Part shown: one piece after another, positions 1 to 11,299 of the stretch
Layout of the letters: every line of letters begins with the position of its first letter
Position numbering within the stretch: position 1 is the stretch's first letter
The notes under the pieces: generated by a model
The model's database searches: none
What the model was told of the DNA's origin: nothing
The model's input: the letters and a program-made list of their open reading frames with translations, nothing else
Source of the DNA: a virus
Taxonomy: Duplodnaviria; Caudoviricetes
Direction: 5' to 3' (one strand)
Length of the DNA stretch: 29,396 nucleotides
Virus record (IMG/VR): IMGVR_UViG_3300020043_004884
Location: 1-29,396 of that record
Program-made: the position numbers and the translations under genes

Positions 1-333
1 GAGTGTGAGGTTTCCGCGAGGATCTGCCAGCCCTTGCCGCAGTCCTGCGACTGAGAAGGCTTGGCAGGGTGTTCCGCCGACGATGAGGTTAGGTCGAAGA
101 GTGTCTGGCCAGTCATTGTGTTTTGTCATGTCGCCCAGGTTGGGGGTTTCCGGCCAGTGATGGGCAAGCACGGCGGAAGGGAACTTCTCGATTTCAGCGA
201 AGGCACAGGCTTTCCATCCGAGCGGTTCCCACGCCACAGACGCGGCCTCAATGCCGCTGCACACAGAAAGAAAAGAAAATGAACAAGGCATCGCATCCGA
301 CGCCGAGGAAGTTGGTTGTTGAATCGGAGTCAT
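1..333 (-). CDS. DNA (cytosine-5) methyltransferase, N-terminal part, runs off the left edge (not in the ORF track)
   Basis: Manual translation from ATG 333: MTPIQQPTSSASDAMPCSFSFLSVCSGIEAASVAWEPLGWKACAFAEIE...NLGDM...IVGGTPCQAFSVAGLRQGLADPRGNLTL. Motif I (SVCSGIEA) and catalytic motif IV (GGTPCQ) are present. The start overlaps the upstream stop as ATGA. Confidence 0.93.
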   Translation of the reverse strand, partial: MTPIQQPTSSASDAMPCSFSFLSVCSGIEAASVAWEPLGWKACAFAEIEKFPSAVLAHHWPETPNLGDMTKHNDWPDTLRPNLIVGGTPCQAFSVAGLRQGLADPRGNLTL

Positions 334-363
334 GCGCGGCGCGGATGGATTTGATCGTTCAAC
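278..363 (+). mobile_element. attC-like recombination site A
   Basis: AATGAAC-AAGGC-ATC[G]CATCCG[A]CGCCG ... CGGCGCGGATGGAT-TTGATC-GTTCAAC. It has an inverse core, a 5/6-nt spacer pair, paired arms with two extrahelical bases, and a GTT core. Confidence 0.85.
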
Positions 364-3934: not shown

Positions 3935-4551
3935 TGCGGCTTGCGATACGAATCCCAGTTAAATTCCACGGTTACGCCGTTGCCCCGTATGCGGTCGATT
4001 ACGGACGTATTGAGCGATGCGGCTAGTTGATGCTTGCTTAGGTTGGCAATTAGGATCGTCGGCTTACCCTCGGCGTATCGTGCATCAATCAGGTGAGTTA
4101 GCAGGCGGTTTTCCCAGTCGCTTTCGGATCGCTCTTGCATCTCGTCAATCACAAGCAAATCCGTTTTGGCAAGGTCGTCAATTATGTCCATTTCGGAAAC
4201 GTCCCGATTTGAGAACGTGGCGCGGATTTCGAGAAAGAATCGCATTGCTGTGCGGTAGCGGGATGATCCGTTGCGGATGGCAAACTCTGCGGCGAGCCTG
4301 GTCTTGCCGTTTCCGCGCTGTCCGCAAAGGAGAATGATCCCGCCCGTGTTGACCTTATCTTGTGCTTTGCGGGCCGCTGATAGCCATTCCTCGCCCGTTG
4401 GTGGGGCGGATAGGACTCGATCCACCCAAGCGGAAGGCCATCCGGTTTTTACGCCTAGTGCGTTGGCAATGAGGGTTTCGTTTTTGCGCTCGTAATCCGG
4501 CTCCGTGGCTTCGTATAGGTGCGGGTGCGTGTATTTGGTTTCTTGGCTCAT
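3931..4551 (-). CDS. DnaC/IstB-like AAA+ helicase loader
   Basis: Walker A GQRGNGKT, Walker B LLVIDE, IDARY...PTILIAN, DRIR, FNWDSYR. It lies between the initiator and dnaB. Confidence 0.88.
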   Translation of the reverse strand: MSQETKYTHPHLYEATEPDYERKNETLIANALGVKTGWPSAWVDRVLSAPPTGEEWLSAARKAQDKVNTGGIILLCGQRGNGKTRLAAEFAIRNGSSRYRTAMRFFLEIRATFSNRDVSEMDIIDDLAKTDLLVIDEMQERSESDWENRLLTHLIDARYAEGKPTILIANLSKHQLAASLNTSVIDRIRGNGVTVEFNWDSYRKPQ

Positions 4552-5264
4552 GGCATTGTGTCGATTAGGTGTTGGCGTTCGTTAAATGGGTCGCGGTGGA
4601 TGGCTAGCTGTTTTTGGGCGGGTTGGGTGGATTGAGGTGGTGGGAAAAAAGATTGCCAGTTTTTTTCGATAGCATACTCAATCCATTCGATGGCTGTATT
4701 TTCTCCAAGCGATTTAAGCTTCTTGAGTTGCATCTTGATGGATTGATCCGTGAGGGGCTTCTTGAGTTGTTTTCGATGTAATTCCCAGTCAGTCCAGCTT
4801 TCCTTGAATTTATCTGAATCAAACGGCAAATCTATCCTTATTGGGAGAACCTTAATGGGAGTATCCTTAATGGGAGAACCTTTGTGTTCCACTTTCGGCA
4901 CGGGTGGTGTGCCACTTGTGGAACGGGTGGTGTTCCGTTTTCGGCACGGGTGGTGTTCCGTTTTCGGGTCAGGTTGTGAATTAGCCTGTTCCACTTTCGG
5001 CACGGGTAGGTGTGCCACTTGTGGAACGGGTGAGGTAATATAAACACTCGTTTGGCCTTGCCGCGAAACCTTGGAAATCATCCCTTTTTCCTGTAATGAT
5101 GCGAGGGATTTAAACATTCGTTTCCTGTCCATCTTGCAGATTTTCGCCGCTTCCTTGGCCGATCCGTAAAGCTCTCCCCTGCGGTAAATATGGCACATCA
5201 CCCGAAAGGCATAGGGGTCAAGTTCTGCATCGTCTAGCCATGCGGGGATGAATGCGGTTTTCAT
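4548..5264 (-). CDS. Phage replication initiator (replisome organiser)
   Basis: N-terminal winged-HTH-like region, a central repeat linker, and a C-terminal W..W..HRKQLKKPLT...AIEKNWQS domain. It sits upstream of the loader and helicase. Confidence 0.8.
   Translation of the reverse strand: MKTAFIPAWLDDAELDPYAFRVMCHIYRRGELYGSAKEAAKICKMDRKRMFKSLASLQEKGMISKVSRQGQTSVYITSPVPQVAHLPVPKVEQANSQPDPKTEHHPCRKRNTTRSTSGTPPVPKVEHKGSPIKDTPIKVLPIRIDLPFDSDKFKESWTDWELHRKQLKKPLTDQSIKMQLKKLKSLGENTAIEWIEYAIEKNWQSFFPPPQSTQPAQKQLAIHRDPFNERQHLIDTMP
4836..5031. repeat. Iteron-like repeats (probable replication origin) inside the initiator gene
   Basis: Six ~22-bp copies of GTGTKCCRYTTKYGGMACGGGT starting at 4884, 4907, 4930, 4953, 4986 and 5010, plus three 15-bp-period CCTTAWTGGGAG units at 4836-4880. 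Confidence 0.8.
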
Positions 5265-5271
5265 AGGGTTA

Positions 5272-5395
5272 ACAAAAAGCCCCCATACCTGCCCACCTGT
5301 GCAACCCCGGAATGAAAAACGGGCAGGTGAGCGGATATGGAGGCTGTTTGGTTTGGTTTCATTCTATTCGATCCGGTTGCAGCGGAGTCTTGCGA
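5272..5395 (-). ncRNA. C4/CI-like antisense-attenuator leader RNA upstream of the initiator gene
   Basis: A long stem (5278-5345) followed by a U tract. Its loop UUUUUCAUUC and bulge GUUGCA are complementary to the upstream leader segments GAAUGAAA (5357-5364) and UGCAACC (5375-5381). Confidence 0.6.
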
Positions 5396-5403
5396 CAGGG
5401 GTT

Positions 5404-5431
5404 TTATTACATCTCGGCGTTACAAAGTCAA
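5404..5431 (-). promoter_or_regulatory. Putative sigma70-type promoter for the replication operon
   Basis: TTGACT-N16-TAATAA immediately before the structured leader. Confidence 0.55.
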
Positions 5432-5682
5432 CCCAACTTATTCGATGTTTCGCGCAAGGGGTTATCTGATTCAATTCTAAAAAACCGATTCCAGTATTCA
5501 ACCCGCTCATCATGATTCATTGCTTCCACTTCGGCGGTTATTTCTGATAGCCGATTCATCAGCGTTTGACGGTATGACAAAAGAACGGATTTGGATGTCC
5601 CCAATCCCTTTTGAAGTCCGGTGCGATAGCCTTTGCTGTATCCCGTGGCATGTCCTTGTTGGTATTCTTGCGTATGTTTCAT
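5428..5682 (-). CDS. Hypothetical protein (GxxxG repeat at N-terminus)
   Basis: ATGA-coupled ORF containing YQQGHATGYSKGYRTG. Confidence 0.55.
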   Translation of the reverse strand: MKHTQEYQQGHATGYSKGYRTGLQKGLGTSKSVLLSYRQTLMNRLSEITAEVEAMNHDERVEYWNRFFRIESDNPLRETSNKLG

Positions 5683-7616: not shown

Positions 7617-7891
7617 TGTGTTGCTCCTTTCGTGCGGGCGGTGATCATGATGTTGGCAATTCTGGCAGCGTGTTCGGCGACATCTCCGATGGTTTGCTCG
7701 TTGGCTTGGAATAGTCGATATCCTGGGTTTGCAAGTAGTCCCTGCAATGCCATCCCCGCGAACCAGTCGCGCAAGGACATGCCGTTTCCGCCTTCAAAGA
7801 ACTCAGCGGCAGTCATTGGCATTCCGTCAGCTTGGCGCGTGAACATAGGCACGGGAAACGCAGGCTCGTTGTTTTTGAATCCAACATTCAC
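7613..7891 (-). CDS. Conserved phage hypothetical protein
   Basis: PAFP...GMSLRDWFAGMALQGLLAN...A..MITAR family pattern. Confidence 0.75.
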   Translation of the reverse strand: MNVGFKNNEPAFPVPMFTRQADGMPMTAAEFFEGGNGMSLRDWFAGMALQGLLANPGYRLFQANEQTIGDVAEHAARIANIMITARTKGATQ

Positions 7892-8295
7892 GCTTCACCT
7901 CCTGTCATTTCGGCGCGTTTCGCCCGCATCAAATCAGCATCCGGCTTGGCCTTGATTCTTAGCCCGCAGACAGGTTCCCCGCCAGCAGGATTCCGAACGC
8001 CATCTTTGACGTAAATCTGGCAGGGTTTCCCGATCCAGTTCTTGGTATCCGCTCCGAAACAGGCGGCTAGGGTTTTGCGGTTGGTTGCGTTGAGAACCAT
8101 CCGCTTCGGCTTGTCGTTAAACCCGATGCTGTAAAAAGACTTCTTCTTGCCGTCCTGCATTACCTCGTCGGCGTGTTCGTATACTCCGCTGATCGTAACG
8201 GGGATTTCGCCCAGCCCGATAAAATCCTCCGATGCTAGGAACTTGGATTCTTGTTTCATTTGGGATACTTTTCCCGTAAATTGTTTTTCGCTCAT
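7888..8295 (-). CDS. Conserved phage protein, possible ssDNA-binding or annealing partner of the exonuclease
   Basis: FLASED...KRMVLNATNRKTL...FG.D...WIGK...IY...GLRI; located in the recombination block. Confidence 0.6.
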   Translation of the reverse strand: MSEKQFTGKVSQMKQESKFLASEDFIGLGEIPVTISGVYEHADEVMQDGKKKSFYSIGFNDKPKRMVLNATNRKTLAACFGADTKNWIGKPCQIYVKDGVRNPAGGEPVCGLRIKAKPDADLMRAKRAEMTGGEA

Positions 8296-8320
8296 TGGTG
8301 TTGTTGTTTGGAGATTAATC

Positions 8321-8372
8321 CCCCGCCCGCGTTGAATGTGCTCCCTTGCAATGTCCAGTTTTGCGGGCGGGG
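8321..8372. other. GC-rich 10-bp inverted repeat with a 32-nt loop in an intergenic gap
   Basis: CCCCGCCCGC (8321-8330) and GCGGGCGGGG (8363-8372). Confidence 0.5.
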
Positions 8373-8378
8373 AAAGGG

Positions 8379-8537
8379 TTATTTTGCGCTCAGGTGATAC
8401 GCGACGGCAAGTATCCCCGAAACTCCGACAAGGGCGGCCAGGGCGGGCGCTATTCGCCTTGGGTTGGCGCGGCGGCGGTTGAGTCGGCTCTTGGCAGTCG
8501 TGGCGCGGATGTGGTCGATGTAGGATTGAGTGTGCAT
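8379..8537 (-). CDS. Small membrane protein, 52 aa (not in the ORF track)
   Basis: MHTQSYIDHIRATTAKSRLNRRRANPRRIAPALAALVGVSGILAVAYHLSAK: a basic stretch followed by one TM segment. Confidence 0.5.
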   Translation of the reverse strand: MHTQSYIDHIRATTAKSRLNRRRANPRRIAPALAALVGVSGILAVAYHLSAK

Positions 8538-8541
8538 GGTT

Positions 8542-8658
8542 TTAGCGGGTCATTTTGTAAACGAAAAATAGGAATGCCGATCCCATCAAGACGGCGCAAA
8601 CCATCTCGGTGATCTTGACAAACTCCGGCGATGTGGCGGCTAGTATTAGTGTGTTCAT
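8542..8658 (-). CDS. Small membrane protein, 38 aa (not in the ORF track)
   Basis: MNTLILAATSPEFVKITEMVCAVLMGSAFLFFVYKMTR, preceded by a C/A-rich leader like other genes here. Confidence 0.5.
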   Translation of the reverse strand: MNTLILAATSPEFVKITEMVCAVLMGSAFLFFVYKMTR

Positions 8659-8730
8659 GGTTGGTTAGTTCTGGTTGCCCCTCCCCTCCCCTGCCAAACT
8701 GACAGGAAAAGCGCGGGGAGGTTTGGGAGA

Positions 8731-8904
8731 TTACACGAGGCAAAGCGGGCTAACGAGTCCATTCGATGTCATCGGCCACCAGCTGCGCTTGATGACTCCT
8801 GAGAATCCGGCTTTGTGCTGCTTGCCCTTCATCGCCATCCATGCGGAGTAAGTGGATTCCGAGATTGCGATGCCGTGTTTTTTGCCTGCGGTTACTTTTT
8901 TCAT
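8731..8904 (-). CDS. Hypothetical basic protein
   Basis: First ORF after promoter P2. Confidence 0.45.
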   Translation of the reverse strand: MKKVTAGKKHGIAISESTYSAWMAMKGKQHKAGFSGVIKRSWWPMTSNGLVSPLCLV

Positions 8905-8957
8905 TTTGTTTGTCAGTTTGATGTTGGTTGTGTCGGCGTGTCTCGCTGACAAGAAAA

Positions 8958-9036
8958 GGAATACCCGATTACTTGATTCCGCGCAATAACTTTTTTCATC
9001 TTTCCTGCATTTTGTCAGAATCCCCTTGCGGCGTAT
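8958..9036 (-). promoter_or_regulatory. Putative promoter P2 with upstream box
   Basis: ATACGCCGCAAGGGGATT-N32-TTGCGC-N17-TATTCC, with an A tract before the -35. Confidence 0.55.
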
Positions 9037-9063
9037 GGGTTTGCGGGCGCGTGCGGTGATCGT

Positions 9064-9405
9064 CTAATCTTGGCACGGTTCGACTAACAACTTGTTCTGC
9101 TTGCGAAGTGGGCACACGCGGCAGTATTCGCCGCCCGTGTATTTGATTTGGTTGCACGCCATGCCTTTCCAAGATTTCTGGACGCACTTCCTTTCCATCT
9201 CTTTCCGATTCGCATCTTGCCGCCGCTTCACATCTTCGATCCGGCATTGTTGCTCGAATGTCAGCGGCACATCTTCGGGGATCGGGTCATACTTTCCGCA
9301 GTCGCACCGTTCCTCCTCGCTCTCACAGAAGAAGCAGAACAAGGCCGCCGCATGCAACGCCGGTGGCGCTGCATCTTCAATTCGGTCTATAGGGGCGGCG
9401 TGCAT
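9064..9405 (-). CDS. Cys-rich hypothetical protein (cassette 1 gene)
   Basis: CxxC...CxC and C...CxxC clusters. It starts inside attC B and reads through the attI-like site. Confidence 0.55.
   Translation of the reverse strand: MHAAPIDRIEDAAPPALHAAALFCFFCESEEERCDCGKYDPIPEDVPLTFEQQCRIEDVKRRQDANRKEMERKCVQKSWKGMACNQIKYTGGEYCRVCPLRKQNKLLVEPCQD
9082..9100 (+). mobile_element. attI-like simple site heading the cassette array
   Basis: GACTAAC-AACTT-GTTCTGC. GTTCTGCTT is the exact reverse complement of AAGCAGAAC at attC B. Confidence 0.6.
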
Positions 9406-9422
9406 GGGCTCAATCGTTAGCG
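9334..9422 (+). mobile_element. attC-like site B
   Basis: GCAGAAC-AAGGCC-GCC[G]CATGCA[A]CGCCG ... CGGCGTGCATGGGC-TCAATC-GTTAGCG. Confidence 0.85.
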
Positions 9423-9652
9423 GTAAGAATGATACTGAGAACCGCCCGCACGGTTCGCATCTCTTGCGAGGATATCTCCCCGCAGCGGAGCCGCATTTCT
9501 TGGGCGGGCATATCCCGCCAGAACTCCAGATCAGTTCGGAGCTTGTAGCCCGCGATGGCCTGTTTTTTATACTCGTCTCGCTGTTTCGTAAGGTCAGCGA
9601 CTTTCATTTCGCAGGGCTTGGTTGTGCCGTCATCCATTAAATACATGCTCAT
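9410..9652 (-). CDS. Hypothetical protein (cassette 2 gene; probable start ATG 9652)
   Basis: MSMYLMDD...QEMRLRCGEISSQEMRTVRAVL...AND. The stop lies inside attC B. Confidence 0.6.
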   Translation of the reverse strand: MSMYLMDDGTTKPCEMKVADLTKQRDEYKKQAIAGYKLRTDLEFWRDMPAQEMRLRCGEISSQEMRTVRAVLSIILTAND

Positions 9653-9685
9653 ATTGATTCGGAGTTGGTTGGTATTTCGGAAGAG

Positions 9686-9777
9686 CCACAACAAGGTCGC
9701 AGATGGCGACGCCGTTGGGCGCGTGTGATCATTTTGGACGCGCAGATCGGCGTCGCGCCATTGCATCGGCGTTAGCC
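9686..9777 (+). mobile_element. attC-like site C
   Basis: CCACAAC-AAGGTC-GCA[G]ATGGCG[A]CG ... CGCGCCATTGC-ATCGGC-GTTAGCC. Confidence 0.85.
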
Positions 9778-10709
9778 AATGAATCAATATGAGTGAAACT
9801 TCCGCTGGCATTTTCCACTTCCTTGAGAACCTCGTCACAAAGTTCACATGGCGGCGACTGCTCTTCGTTCTTTGTGTGTTGTTCTTGATCGCCTCTGGTG
9901 TGATTCTCTACGAGGCTTACACGGGACATTTCCGACTGGATAGGATGGCTCGTTCCGCAGAGCTTCTTGAGCAACTTCAAAAGCAACAGGATAGCCTTGT
10001 TACACACCCTAATCCCACGCTCTCCAAGATTCACGAAGGCATTGCCGATGAGTTGCAGAGCTACGTAGGCGGAGATCGGTTGCCCTTTCACATGCCCGTT
10101 TGGTTCTTGAAGGCACTGGCATCTATAGTTCCTTGGGTATTCGCCGCCTTCATTTTGATTCTCACCAACGATAGCGGGATCAAGAATATGCTCGGGGGCG
10201 TTTTGATTATCGCTACGCCACTTGTTTTCATTGGGGCTGTCCTCCCATGCTTCCGACACAGTTGGATCAACTACTTCGGTTACCCGATTGGAAGCTGTCT
10301 TCTTATTATGATCATTTTTTGGCGGATCGGAACGCGCAAACCAAAGAAGGCTAACAAGGCGGAGATGGACGACGCCGAGGAAGCCGTCTGATCTTTTTTG
10401 GCGTCGTTCGCGGCGCGCCATTCCTATATCGTTCGTCTCACCATAAAGATCCATGTCGAGAGCGCCTAGCATGATGCATCGTTTGTCCTCAACCGCGGAG
10501 TCCAGTTCCCGCGTTGTCCATATCAGCTTGCCATCGTTCCGGCGCGCCATGATTTTCAGCACGGTTTCCAGTTGGGCATTGCGGAACTTTTGGGCAGCGA
10601 GTTCGTGCTCAGTGTTTTCGGCGTGAGCAATCGCGGCCTTGACCTGCCCAAAGAAAGACGAATAAGGCGTCTCTGATAACGGGGACTCGCCCCGAGTTAA
10701 ATTTTTCAT
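9729..10709 (-). CDS. Cassette 4 gene. The probable coding core is 10709 to ~10432; the frame stays open across cassette 3 to a stop in attC C
   Basis: The N-terminal ~93 aa look like a helical phage protein. The remainder is the antisense of the plus-strand membrane gene. Confidence 0.5.
   Translation of the reverse strand: MKNLTRGESPLSETPYSSFFGQVKAAIAHAENTEHELAAQKFRNAQLETVLKIMARRNDGKLIWTTRELDSAVEDKRCIMLGALDMDLYGETNDIGMARRERRQKRSDGFLGVVHLRLVSLLWFARSDPPKNDHNKKTASNRVTEVVDPTVSEAWEDSPNENKWRSDNQNAPEHILDPAIVGENQNEGGEYPRNYRCQCLQEPNGHVKGQPISAYVALQLIGNAFVNLGERGIRVCNKAILLLLKLLKKLCGTSHPIQSEMSRVSLVENHTRGDQEQHTKNEEQSPPCELCDEVLKEVENASGSFTHIDSLANADAMARRRSARPK
9789..10391 (+). CDS. Multi-pass membrane protein (cassette 3 gene, canonical integron orientation)
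   Basis: About four hydrophobic segments. It is the only convincing plus-strand gene, starts 18 nt after GTTAGCC, and stops inside attC D. Confidence 0.8.
   Translation: MSETSAGIFHFLENLVTKFTWRRLLFVLCVLFLIASGVILYEAYTGHFRLDRMARSAELLEQLQKQQDSLVTHPNPTLSKIHEGIADELQSYVGGDRLPFHMPVWFLKALASIVPWVFAAFILILTNDSGIKNMLGGVLIIATPLVFIGAVLPCFRHSWINYFGYPIGSCLLIMIIFWRIGTRKPKKANKAEMDDAEEAV
10349..10437 (+). mobile_element. attC-like site D
   Basis: GGCTAAC-AAGGC-GGA[G]ATGG[A]CG[A]CGCCG ... CGGCGCGCCATTCC-TATATC-GTTCGTC. GGCTAAC complements GTTAGCC at 9771. Confidence 0.88.
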
Positions 10710-10777
10710 TTTGGCTTGGTAGTTGTGGGAGTAGTCGGCGGGCGCTCCCGTCCCCGTATCAGGACTCGACGTTCAGG
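10657..10777 (+). mobile_element. attC-like site E
   Basis: GACGAAT-AAGGC-GTC[T]CTGATA[A]CGGGGAC ... GTCCCCGTATCAGGAC-TCGAC-GTTCAGG. AGACGAAT matches GTTCGTCT at 10431 at 7 of 8 positions. Confidence 0.82.
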
Positions 10778-11121
10778 AATTTCGCCGCTTGCCGCTTGGC
10801 TTGCTCCAGTTCACCCTGGGTGATCCGTGTTGATGCTTGTGGCTTGATGCGGTGACTCGCCGGTATGTGGTTGTGGGCGCGTGGTTTCGGTTTCGGGATG
10901 TCTTTCATTTTCGGTTCTGGTTGCGTTCGGATCATGGTGATTTTTACATGCTGGGAAAGGTCATCACGGTAAGGGTCTTTGATTCCTGGAATGGCCGTGA
11001 ATGCGTCGGCAAGGTCGACGGCGGTTCGGGCTACCAGGATGAAGGAAAGATCACCCAGAACCACTTCCGTTGCGATCCCAGACTTGTAGGGGATGTGGCG
11101 CTTAGTCTTGCCCATCCGCAT
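10759..11121 (-). CDS. Hypothetical protein
   Basis: ORF in the operon; its stop lies inside attC E. Confidence 0.55.
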   Translation of the reverse strand: MRMGKTKRHIPYKSGIATEVVLGDLSFILVARTAVDLADAFTAIPGIKDPYRDDLSQHVKITMIRTQPEPKMKDIPKPKPRAHNHIPASHRIKPQASTRITQGELEQAKRQAAKFLNVES

Positions 11122-11299
11122 CCTCCGTTTCCATGCTCAGTCTCATTGCGAGATAGCGATCCCAATATTCCGAAAACGCTTCCTTGATCCGTTCGCGGTT
11201 GTCAGGGTCGGCGGCAACGTAGGTATCGGCCAGCCGTTTTATGAAATTCCCGCCGTAGGTCTGCATGGCGGCTATCACTCCGATTTCAATTGAGTTCAT
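11102..11299 (-). CDS. Conserved phage hypothetical protein
   Basis: M..YGGNF...LA.....ADPDN...I..AF..YW..Y family pattern. Confidence 0.7.
   Translation of the reverse strand: MNSIEIGVIAAMQTYGGNFIKRLADTYVAADPDNRERIKEAFSEYWDRYLAMRLSMETEDADGQD

Follow-up and report, generated by a model that had tools for sequence, protein, structure and literature searches.

A phage early-operon array of integron-type cassettes with mostly reversed genes

Introduction

Can a phage carry integron cassettes whose genes mostly point away from their attC sites, and which enzyme could move them? The question is raised by IMG/VR record IMGVR_UViG_3300020043_004884 (Caudoviricetes), of which the whole stretch of 29,396 nucleotides was analyzed (the window). 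An earlier reading of the letters alone (the sequence-only reading) had proposed an array of four integron-type cassettes in this phage. It suggested that attC recombination shuffles accessory genes of the phage, with an integrase from the host or encoded elsewhere. The comparisons made here support that suggestion.

The array is a real cluster of attC sites lacking an integron integrase (CALIN). Most of its cassettes are reversed, and there is direct evidence for exchange. It belongs to a wider phage system with IntI-like enzymes of its own. It functions as an integron array but is not a complete integron. The sites have attC anatomy on a single strand. Cassette 3 has moved exactly at the crossover point (G|TT), and a relative holds other cassettes at the same locus. 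Each reversed gene begins within its own attC or immediately behind it and ends in the neighboring site. We consider it probable that this early-operon array of four cassettes, three of them reversed, was assembled by an IntI acting in trans, from a host or another phage, and that it can still be exchanged in that way.

attC sites and cassette boundaries

The window was searched with an attC grammar (AAC or AAT, 5 to 6 nt, three pairs, one extra base, at least four pairs, a second extra base, loop, mirror arm, 5 to 6 nt, GTT). Five sites were found on the plus strand and none on the minus strand. All 60 dinucleotide shuffles of the window gave none. Four of the sites form the array, at the coordinates that the sequence-only reading had given (Table 1). 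It had missed the fifth, canonical site.

Each array site has the order R''-spacer-L''...L'-spacer-R'. Position 4 of L'' is an extra base (on the top strand G, G, G, and T), and a further extra base is A. The L'' and L' arms are paired in 5/5 window sites, with extrahelical bases on one arm at fixed positions, and by the grammar the arm stems are completely paired in all of them. The terminal triplets are AAC and GTT in attC1, attC2, attC3, and the fifth site, and AAT and GTT in attC4. The crossover G lies at 9094, 9416, 9771, 10431, and 10771, and the four unit lengths given earlier were confirmed. In three of the four units, the remainder of R' is complementary to the unit's own R'' (7/7, 7/7, and 6/7). 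The three junction pairs quoted in the sequence-only reading are right (9/9, 7/7, and 7/8). The pair of unit 2 had been left out, and it matches at only 4/7.

Table 1. Features of the array and its surroundings (window positions unless another locus is named)
Feature	Position	Strand	Description
Record G000	whole window		Linear virus contig; completeness estimate 43%
Left junction, attI-like simple site	9082..9100	+	7-nt box ending AAC, 5-nt spacer, G|TT at 9094
attC1	9334-9422	+	54.3 bits, E 1.6e-14; first spacer 6 nt; recombinogenic fold disfavored
attC2	9686-9777	+	44.2 bits, E 2.3e-11; first spacer 6 nt
attC3	10349-10437	+	77.8 bits; canonical spacers; three extra bases
attC4	10657-10777	+	121 nt; R'' ends AAT; long loop with gene 4 start; 16 pairs by grammar; 17.3 bits, partial, E 0.0056
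Fifth attC, outside array	278-363	+	Canonical; 65.0 bits
Cassette 1	9095..9416	.	322 bp, reversed; R'/R'' complementary over 9 nt
Cassette 2	9417..9771	.	355 bp, reversed; R'/R'' 4/7
Cassette 3	9772..10431	.	660 bp, canonical (sense), mobile; R'/R'' 7/7
Cassette 4	10432..10771	.	340 bp, reversed; R'/R'' 7/8
Gene 1	9064..9405	-	113 aa; start inside attC1; reads through attC1 and left junction
Gene 2	9410..9652	-	80 aa; stop in attC1 spacer
Leader frame	9649..9732	-	27 codons, across attC2; ATGA overlaps with upstream stop and gene 2 start; open frame, predicted
Gene 3	9789..10391	+	200-aa hydrophobic protein; antisense to phage transcription; one homologue, 32% over 90%
Gene 4	9729..10709	-	326 codons; start in attC4 loop; conserved part ends at junction (residue 93)
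Flanking phage gene	10759..11121	-	Conserved; last codons and stop inside attC4; 38% identical homologue borders L001 array
Noncoding block left of array	8898..9039	.	87% identical in L001
Exonuclease VIII gene	1.5 kb from array		PHROG match
Integrase loci	L029 2526-7146; L156, L157/L159, L158, L160		IntI-like gene directly behind conserved attI; up to nine mostly reversed cassettes

An outside set of the same attC family was drawn from metagenome contigs (at least 132 loci; about 790 estimated). A covariance model was built in this analysis from 26 nonredundant sites on other contigs; it is not the IntegronFinder or HattCI model. These sites have invariant GTT and AAC triplets, extra bases in a fixed register, and a first spacer of 5 nt (26/26). 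Compensatory change was seen in 11 of the 14 stem pairs, and 0 of 500 shuffles reached the covariation score. In the window, the five sites were the five best matches, all on the bottom strand (Table 1); the next match scored 13.1 bits. The covariance-model support that the sequence-only reading had named as a check was found for the four array sites. The search pattern that seeded the model was derived from attC3 and the fifth site, so attC1 and attC2 are the independent part of this test.

Folding energy alone was unremarkable for three of the four array sites (z of -1.66, -2.77, +0.24, and -0.73 for attC1 to attC4). The probability of the L stem on the bottom strand was 0.5 to 0.9 for four sites and about 0 for attC1. 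That of R-box pairing was 0.02 to 0.77. An Rfam scan of the window gave 0 matches.

The sites could instead be linkers for homologous recombination by a RecE-type system of the phage, or RNA hairpins, and not substrates of IntI. The phage has an exonuclease VIII gene near the array, sites of the attC family are 71 to 74% alike, and one homologue of gene 4 has a different N terminus derived from an attC. Invariant GTT and AAC, extra bases in a fixed register, R'/R'' complementarity, and boundaries at the G are signatures of IntI, and they would be unexpected for linkers or RNA hairpins. We regard that explanation as very improbable.

The left junction has a 7-5-7 geometry. The same geometry recurs at the left junction of L001, the relative described below, and at four integrase-linked phage attI sites. 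It precedes 8 of the 661 GTT triplets in the window. About 40 nt to the left of the junction, 11 nt (9046 to 9056) match exactly the hairpin region of the attI linked to the phage integrases. Shuffling gave a p of 0.003, but the comparison was post hoc and the match is misplaced by about 30 nt; it is a lead only.

Mobility of the cassettes

Eight of the 12 listed sequencing runs were examined, all as assembled contigs, which drop rare variants. There is no RNA run among the 12, and X10 is probably DNA.

Run X2 has a 2,224-nt contig that contains cassette 3. The match covers 9769 to 10435 with three differences (99.5% identity), and both of its ends lie at G|TT. Its flanks in X2 are unlike the window, with another attC-like arm before it and the start of another cassette after it. 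Run X1, from the same study, agrees with X2. The insertion of cassette 3 appears to be recent, because so similar a copy exists elsewhere and the cassette lies inside the array. Mobility with G|TT boundaries is seen at the DNA level for cassette 3 and only at the protein level for cassettes 2 and 4; it is not seen for cassette 1. Contigs of runs X4 and X8 bridge the junction of cassettes 3 and 4 without differences. X4 or X8 could be the source sample.

Runs X1 and X2 also contain another element with the same 35-nt leader and gene 2 start (window 9646 to 9680). Its gene and its attC both differ from those in the window.

The sequence-only reading had expected related contigs to vary exactly at G|TT. 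Cassette 3 does so, and two contig pairs of the same attC family do as well. Across the 3,705 bp that precede G|TT, L175 and L197 share 99.97% identity, and beyond it they diverge (L175 extends 40 nt further). L191 has as its second cassette the one that comes first in L167, aligned from the G to the next GTT. The phage genome G005 holds one 290-bp cassette twice.

A flank motif search gave nine loci, and one contig was a true relative. This contig, L001 (from genome G001), is the only syntenic relative found. It has the same flanking gene and noncoding block. At the same locus it has three different cassettes, all reversed, with R'/R'' matches of 7/7 each, so cassette content differs between related contigs as had been anticipated. 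The gene at 11102 to 11299 was also used as a query and gave no additional locus. The end of gene 1 was likened to a small gene of L001 and this was rejected, as the alignment was unsupportive (p = 0.17).

Cassette genes and their polarity

Only cassette 3 has its gene upstream of its own attC on the top strand. Genes 1, 2, and 4 are on the bottom strand, and their cassettes fail the test for canonical polarity. The claim that three of the four genes point away from their attC held up, through homologues for genes 2 and 4 and through the open frame for gene 1. The same genes had been called phage-like. No PHROG or Pfam family matches any of the three, but minus-strand homologues number 14 for gene 2 and 4 for gene 4; gene 1 has none. 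Gene 3 likewise has no PHROG or Pfam family, and neither these databases nor the protein atlas assigned a function to any of the four genes.

For gene 1, no homologue was found in viral contigs, GenBank phages, or the protein atlas, and its polarity is for that reason read from the open frame. The homologues of gene 2 are minus-strand frames with up to 90% identity. Thirteen of them reach the junction, and 11 of these 13 have Asn there, followed by 10 different tails. The frame of gene 4 is open through attC3 and all of cassette 3 and stops in attC2. Its homologues are also minus-strand frames, and two of them are 87% identical with other tails. Asn is present at the junction in two of the four, each with its own tail. 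For both genes 2 and 4, similarity among homologues ends at the junction. The protein of gene 3 had no match in metagenome contigs. Its genome match in L011 (31% over 50 residues) is weak, probably spurious, and was rejected.

The minus-strand frames of the array are nearly continuous. The flanking gene stops in attC4, gene 4 runs to attC2, and the leader frame and gene 2 follow. The stop of gene 2 in attC1 lies four bases before the start of gene 1. In silico deletion of all four cassettes would extend the flanking gene to the present stop of gene 1. An end-to-end open antisense frame is present in 2 of 67 control cassettes. This rarity hints that cassette 3 was retained because its read-through is uninterrupted, and one case proves little.

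Polarity was compared across the attC family after six duplicate loci were dropped (L014, L026, L028, L029, L030, and L091). The longer open reading frame of each unit served as the proxy. It was sense in 3/17 viral units and in 66/80 units on metagenome contigs (p = 5.8e-7; 19 viral loci with the same attC family), by a crude measure that misfiles cassette 3 as antisense and includes some units that span two cassettes through a missed site. In 35 curated viral units, a script found 24 antisense frames that cross the left junction. In the 23 that do so at a true G|TT, AAC is always read as Asn. With gene 4 added by hand, the junction AAC is in frame in 24/24 cases at a true G|TT versus 12/17 controls, a modest excess (p = 0.008). 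Counting the junction of L158, which has no GTT and is out of frame, gives 24/25 (p = 0.03). A null of one in three for in-frame Asn was rejected because of this control fraction.

On a bacterial contig that also carries ClpC and glutamate dehydrogenase genes (L036), a single reversed cassette of the phage family phrog_419 (2430 to 2750; E 3.7e-31) lies in an otherwise sense array. Two other loci are noted as side observations. The viral contig L012 has a sense cassette for a PEP-CTERM protein followed by a ubiquitin-family gene (4222 to 5442). In L076, a group II intron reverse transcriptase lies just upstream of an attC of the same family (7691 to 9472).

These polarities bear on whether the phage took up part of a host chromosomal integron as one block, like the Vibrio prophages of Qi et al. 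2023. The attC family is shared with arrays on bacterial contigs and cassette 3 is canonical, as a captured block would have it. Three of the four genes, though, have a polarity that is rare on bacterial contigs. The relative L001 holds other cassettes at the same place, and the fifth site, 8.7 kb away, has the same polarity. We find block capture barely credible.

A frozen array is less easily dismissed. IntI may have built it long ago, after which it was domesticated, with the hairpins kept as coding and coupling sequence and cassette 3 as a late accident. Three of the four sites deviate from the attC family, and the contig-only runs show no excision. The genes overlap the sites, and therefore coding selection alone could preserve them. 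What speaks against a frozen array is cassette 3, whose nearly identical copy elsewhere and place inside the array mark a recent insertion. The stems of all sites are still fully paired, and genes 2 and 4 have close homologues with other neighbors. On balance this history is unlikely, although of the alternatives it deserves the most weight.

Integrases

Four attC sites lie within 1.45 kb, and the flanks of 9 kb and 18 kb are free of integrase in a contig that is 43% complete, as in a CALIN. The intI beside the array that marks a complete integron is not present in G000. The sequence-only reading had reported no intI in the window, and searches with PF00589 and tblastn gave no match either.

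Other phages of the same attC family encode IntI-like integrases (Table 1). The integrase of L029 (from G005, which is 100% complete) has TIGR02249 as its best family. Its best structure is VchIntIA (2A3V), aligned across the IntI insertion (E 5.8e-37). Its relatives occur in five viral loci from four phage types. The catalytic motifs are present in these enzymes. Conservation of the linked attI ends at G|TT and is followed by a first cassette with matching R boxes. The cassette genes of these arrays mostly point at the integrase. The intI gene is opposite to the attC top strand in L156, L158, L159, and L160. The L158 integrase is a Haloferula luteola protein in a provirus, and another is in a complete phage with terminal repeats.

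An attI motif search gave 35 loci. Ten had the full motif, and 5 of those had no integrase nearby. G005 has a second copy of its attI (L169 3991 to 4314 and L199), with 38 bp identical. It carries the 290-bp cassette and lies between a large gene and the terminase. The phage-encoded IntI-like clade would be a concrete candidate for an integrase encoded elsewhere.

Virus Rctr41k (KX853513) encodes a true IntI above the TIGR02249 cutoff (L163 4680 to 5678). It is annotated as xerD and is co-oriented with the phage genes. It was rejected as a further example, as no attC was found within 11.6 kb.

The phage of the window may itself encode an IntI-like integrase in the missing part of its genome and so have a complete reversed integron with a detached array. 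More than half of the genome is missing by the completeness estimate, such an enzyme occurs in four other phage types that share the attC family, and G005 shows that a second attI and cassette can lie away from the integrase. Where an integrase is present, however, it lies directly behind attI, which is not so here. None was found in the relative G001 (90% complete) or in G012 (100% complete), which has reversed cassettes; G008 (85% complete) gave none as well. A resident integrase is quite unlikely in our estimate.

Phage setting and neighboring genes

The contig is read as a siphophage transcribed leftward, because the minus strand holds every PHROG match to terminase, portal, protease, capsid, tail, endolysin, exonuclease VIII, DnaB/DnaC, and replication initiator. 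The array has the lysis region on one side and recombination and replication genes on the other. Between 8500 and 11300, 0 sigma-70 consensus sites were found versus 2.1 expected, and sigma-70 may not be the promoter type of the host.

The frame of a C5 DNA methylase (minus strand) starts inside the fifth attC and is cut by the contig start (PF00145, E 1.4e-15 for 1 to 333). It overlaps the stop of the gene at 330 to 545, with the same type of overlap as the leader frame of the array. The homologue of that gene in G001 has no attC after it. A QueC-like gene lies at 1068 to 2508 with two conserved unknown neighbors (phrog_15826 and phrog_37496). Together they are possibly a DNA-modification module.

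Discussion

Several points weigh against an array that IntI assembled and still exchanges. Three of the four array sites are noncanonical. The R''-L'' spacer is 5 nt, the canonical attC length, in attC3, attC4, and the fifth site, and 6 nt in attC1 and attC2. The extrahelical bases had been said to share one register. With the 6-nt spacer, those of attC1 and attC2 keep their register relative to L'' but lose it relative to R''. attC1 favors an alternative hairpin, the R'' triplet of attC4 is AAT rather than AAC, and the boxes of unit 2 pair poorly. The pairing percentage in the 26-site set is biased toward structure because the attC grammar selected the sites. Judging from their sequences, attC1, attC2, and attC4 look partly decayed and attC3 looks recent. 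Present activity of the first three is doubtful.

The remaining points concern the junctions and the enzyme. The left junction had been called attI-like. This is right for its 7-5-7 geometry but not for its sequence, which is otherwise unlike L001 and unlike the attI of the phage integrases. Conservation with L001 ends short of both junctions, at different offsets. The two arrays may accordingly have separate origins at secondary sites, in the style of attG insertion. No tyrosine recombinase was found in the 43%-complete contig, and no IntI in G001. The 125 metagenome loci with the same attC family (270,680 bp) gave no host IntI. The phage IntI-like integrases score 236 to 260 bits, and the TIGR02249 cutoff is 265. 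No excision joint or cassette circle was seen in the contigs of the eight runs, and cassettes 1, 2, and 4 were not found as DNA in another array among 201 loci. The in-frame fraction for the junction AAC is already 71% in controls.

We favor exchange by an IntI acting in trans. IntI would fold and recombine the bottom strand, as in any integron. The sites are most likely ordinary IntI substrates, and the novelty would be the format of the cargo. The reversed cassettes would be read with the early operon. No cassette promoter (Pc) would be required, because the phage transcribes the same bottom strand. With the junction AAC read as Asn, any cassette could borrow a stop from whatever site comes next. 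The short ATGA overlaps may couple translation across the hairpins. Canonical cassette 3 would be a silent passenger, tolerated as its length and open antisense frame preserve read-through. The enzyme is likely supplied by the host or by a coresident phage. The putative host lineage, Verrucomicrobia, comes from L158 only. Verrucomicrobia encode integrons according to the available portion of Cury et al. 2016 (PMC4889954).

A broader interpretation is tentative, and we lean slightly away from it. It pictures a mirror-image phage integron in which the phage IntI clade, which has an attI of its own, would move a shared pool of reversed cassettes and would also serve, in trans, phages that lack an integrase. 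Traffic with hosts would go both ways, and phage early genes would be a source of cassettes. Each gene would start in a hairpin, read an in-frame Asn at the crossover, and use a stop lent by its neighbor. Host cassettes would be kept if antisense read-through stays intact.

Clusters of attC sites in phages have already been published. The accessible part of Qi et al. 2023 (PMC9892861) reports 17 CALINs in 10,705 phage genomes, with 5/6 tested attC sites active with IntI1. The orientation it gives for TJE1 and PH101 is typical, and P12002L is described with divergent attC sites; that part describes no genes antisense to attC. Like the window, those phages have attC clusters without intI and a DNA methylase among the attC-linked genes. 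The window differs in that 3/4 genes are reversed, the genes overlap the sites and belong to a phage operon, there is a left junction, and mobility is exact. The attC grammar found one TJE1 site, and it is sense. Our literature search found no paper on reversed phage cassettes or on reversed gene polarity in such clusters; most subscription journals and the bioRxiv supplements were outside its scope.

Canonical integrons (IntI, attI, Pc, and attC; VchIntIA, PDB 2A3V) share the attC anatomy, the G|TT crossover, and R'/R'' complementarity with the window. Related phages hold intI, attI, and an array in canonical geometry. The window has no intI or recognizable Pc, and its genes point toward attI. 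Transcription would therefore enter at the far end, and new cassettes would come last in the operon.

IntI inserts cassettes at GWT sites outside integrons, and this is the proposed origin of small CALINs in the portion available of Loot et al. (bioRxiv 10.1101/2022.09.11.507474). Such attG insertion, and the single attC sites lacking an integron integrase (SALINs) treated there, would fit the lone fifth site and the junctions inside gene ends. Those cases are single canonical cassettes in bacterial chromosomes, whereas the window has a reused phage locus with several reversed cassettes. In the Treponema integrons with inverted integrases, as far as the excerpted account in Cury et al. 2016 (PMC4889954) goes, the integrase and cassette genes are co-oriented, as they are in the related phage integrons. 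There the integrase is flipped relative to attC. The phage system keeps the canonical geometry of the integrase, and the cassette genes are flipped.

If this reading is true, phages would have a site-specific, programmable route to mosaicism in which small early genes are swapped as promoterless cassettes. The rule that genes face their attC would become one of two integron formats. Many short phage genes with odd ends may be cassettes. A cultured host is available for a test, as the L158 integrase is from a Haloferula luteola provirus.

To our knowledge, the conversion of a gene into a cassette is an open question. Phage genes that occur with and without a junction (the homologues of genes 2 and 4, and the G001 homologue of the gene at 330 to 545) would offer intermediates of cassette formation. 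Integrons are known stores of anti-phage genes. A recombination system common to phages and to integrons with such genes would be relevant to the arms race between phages and their hosts.

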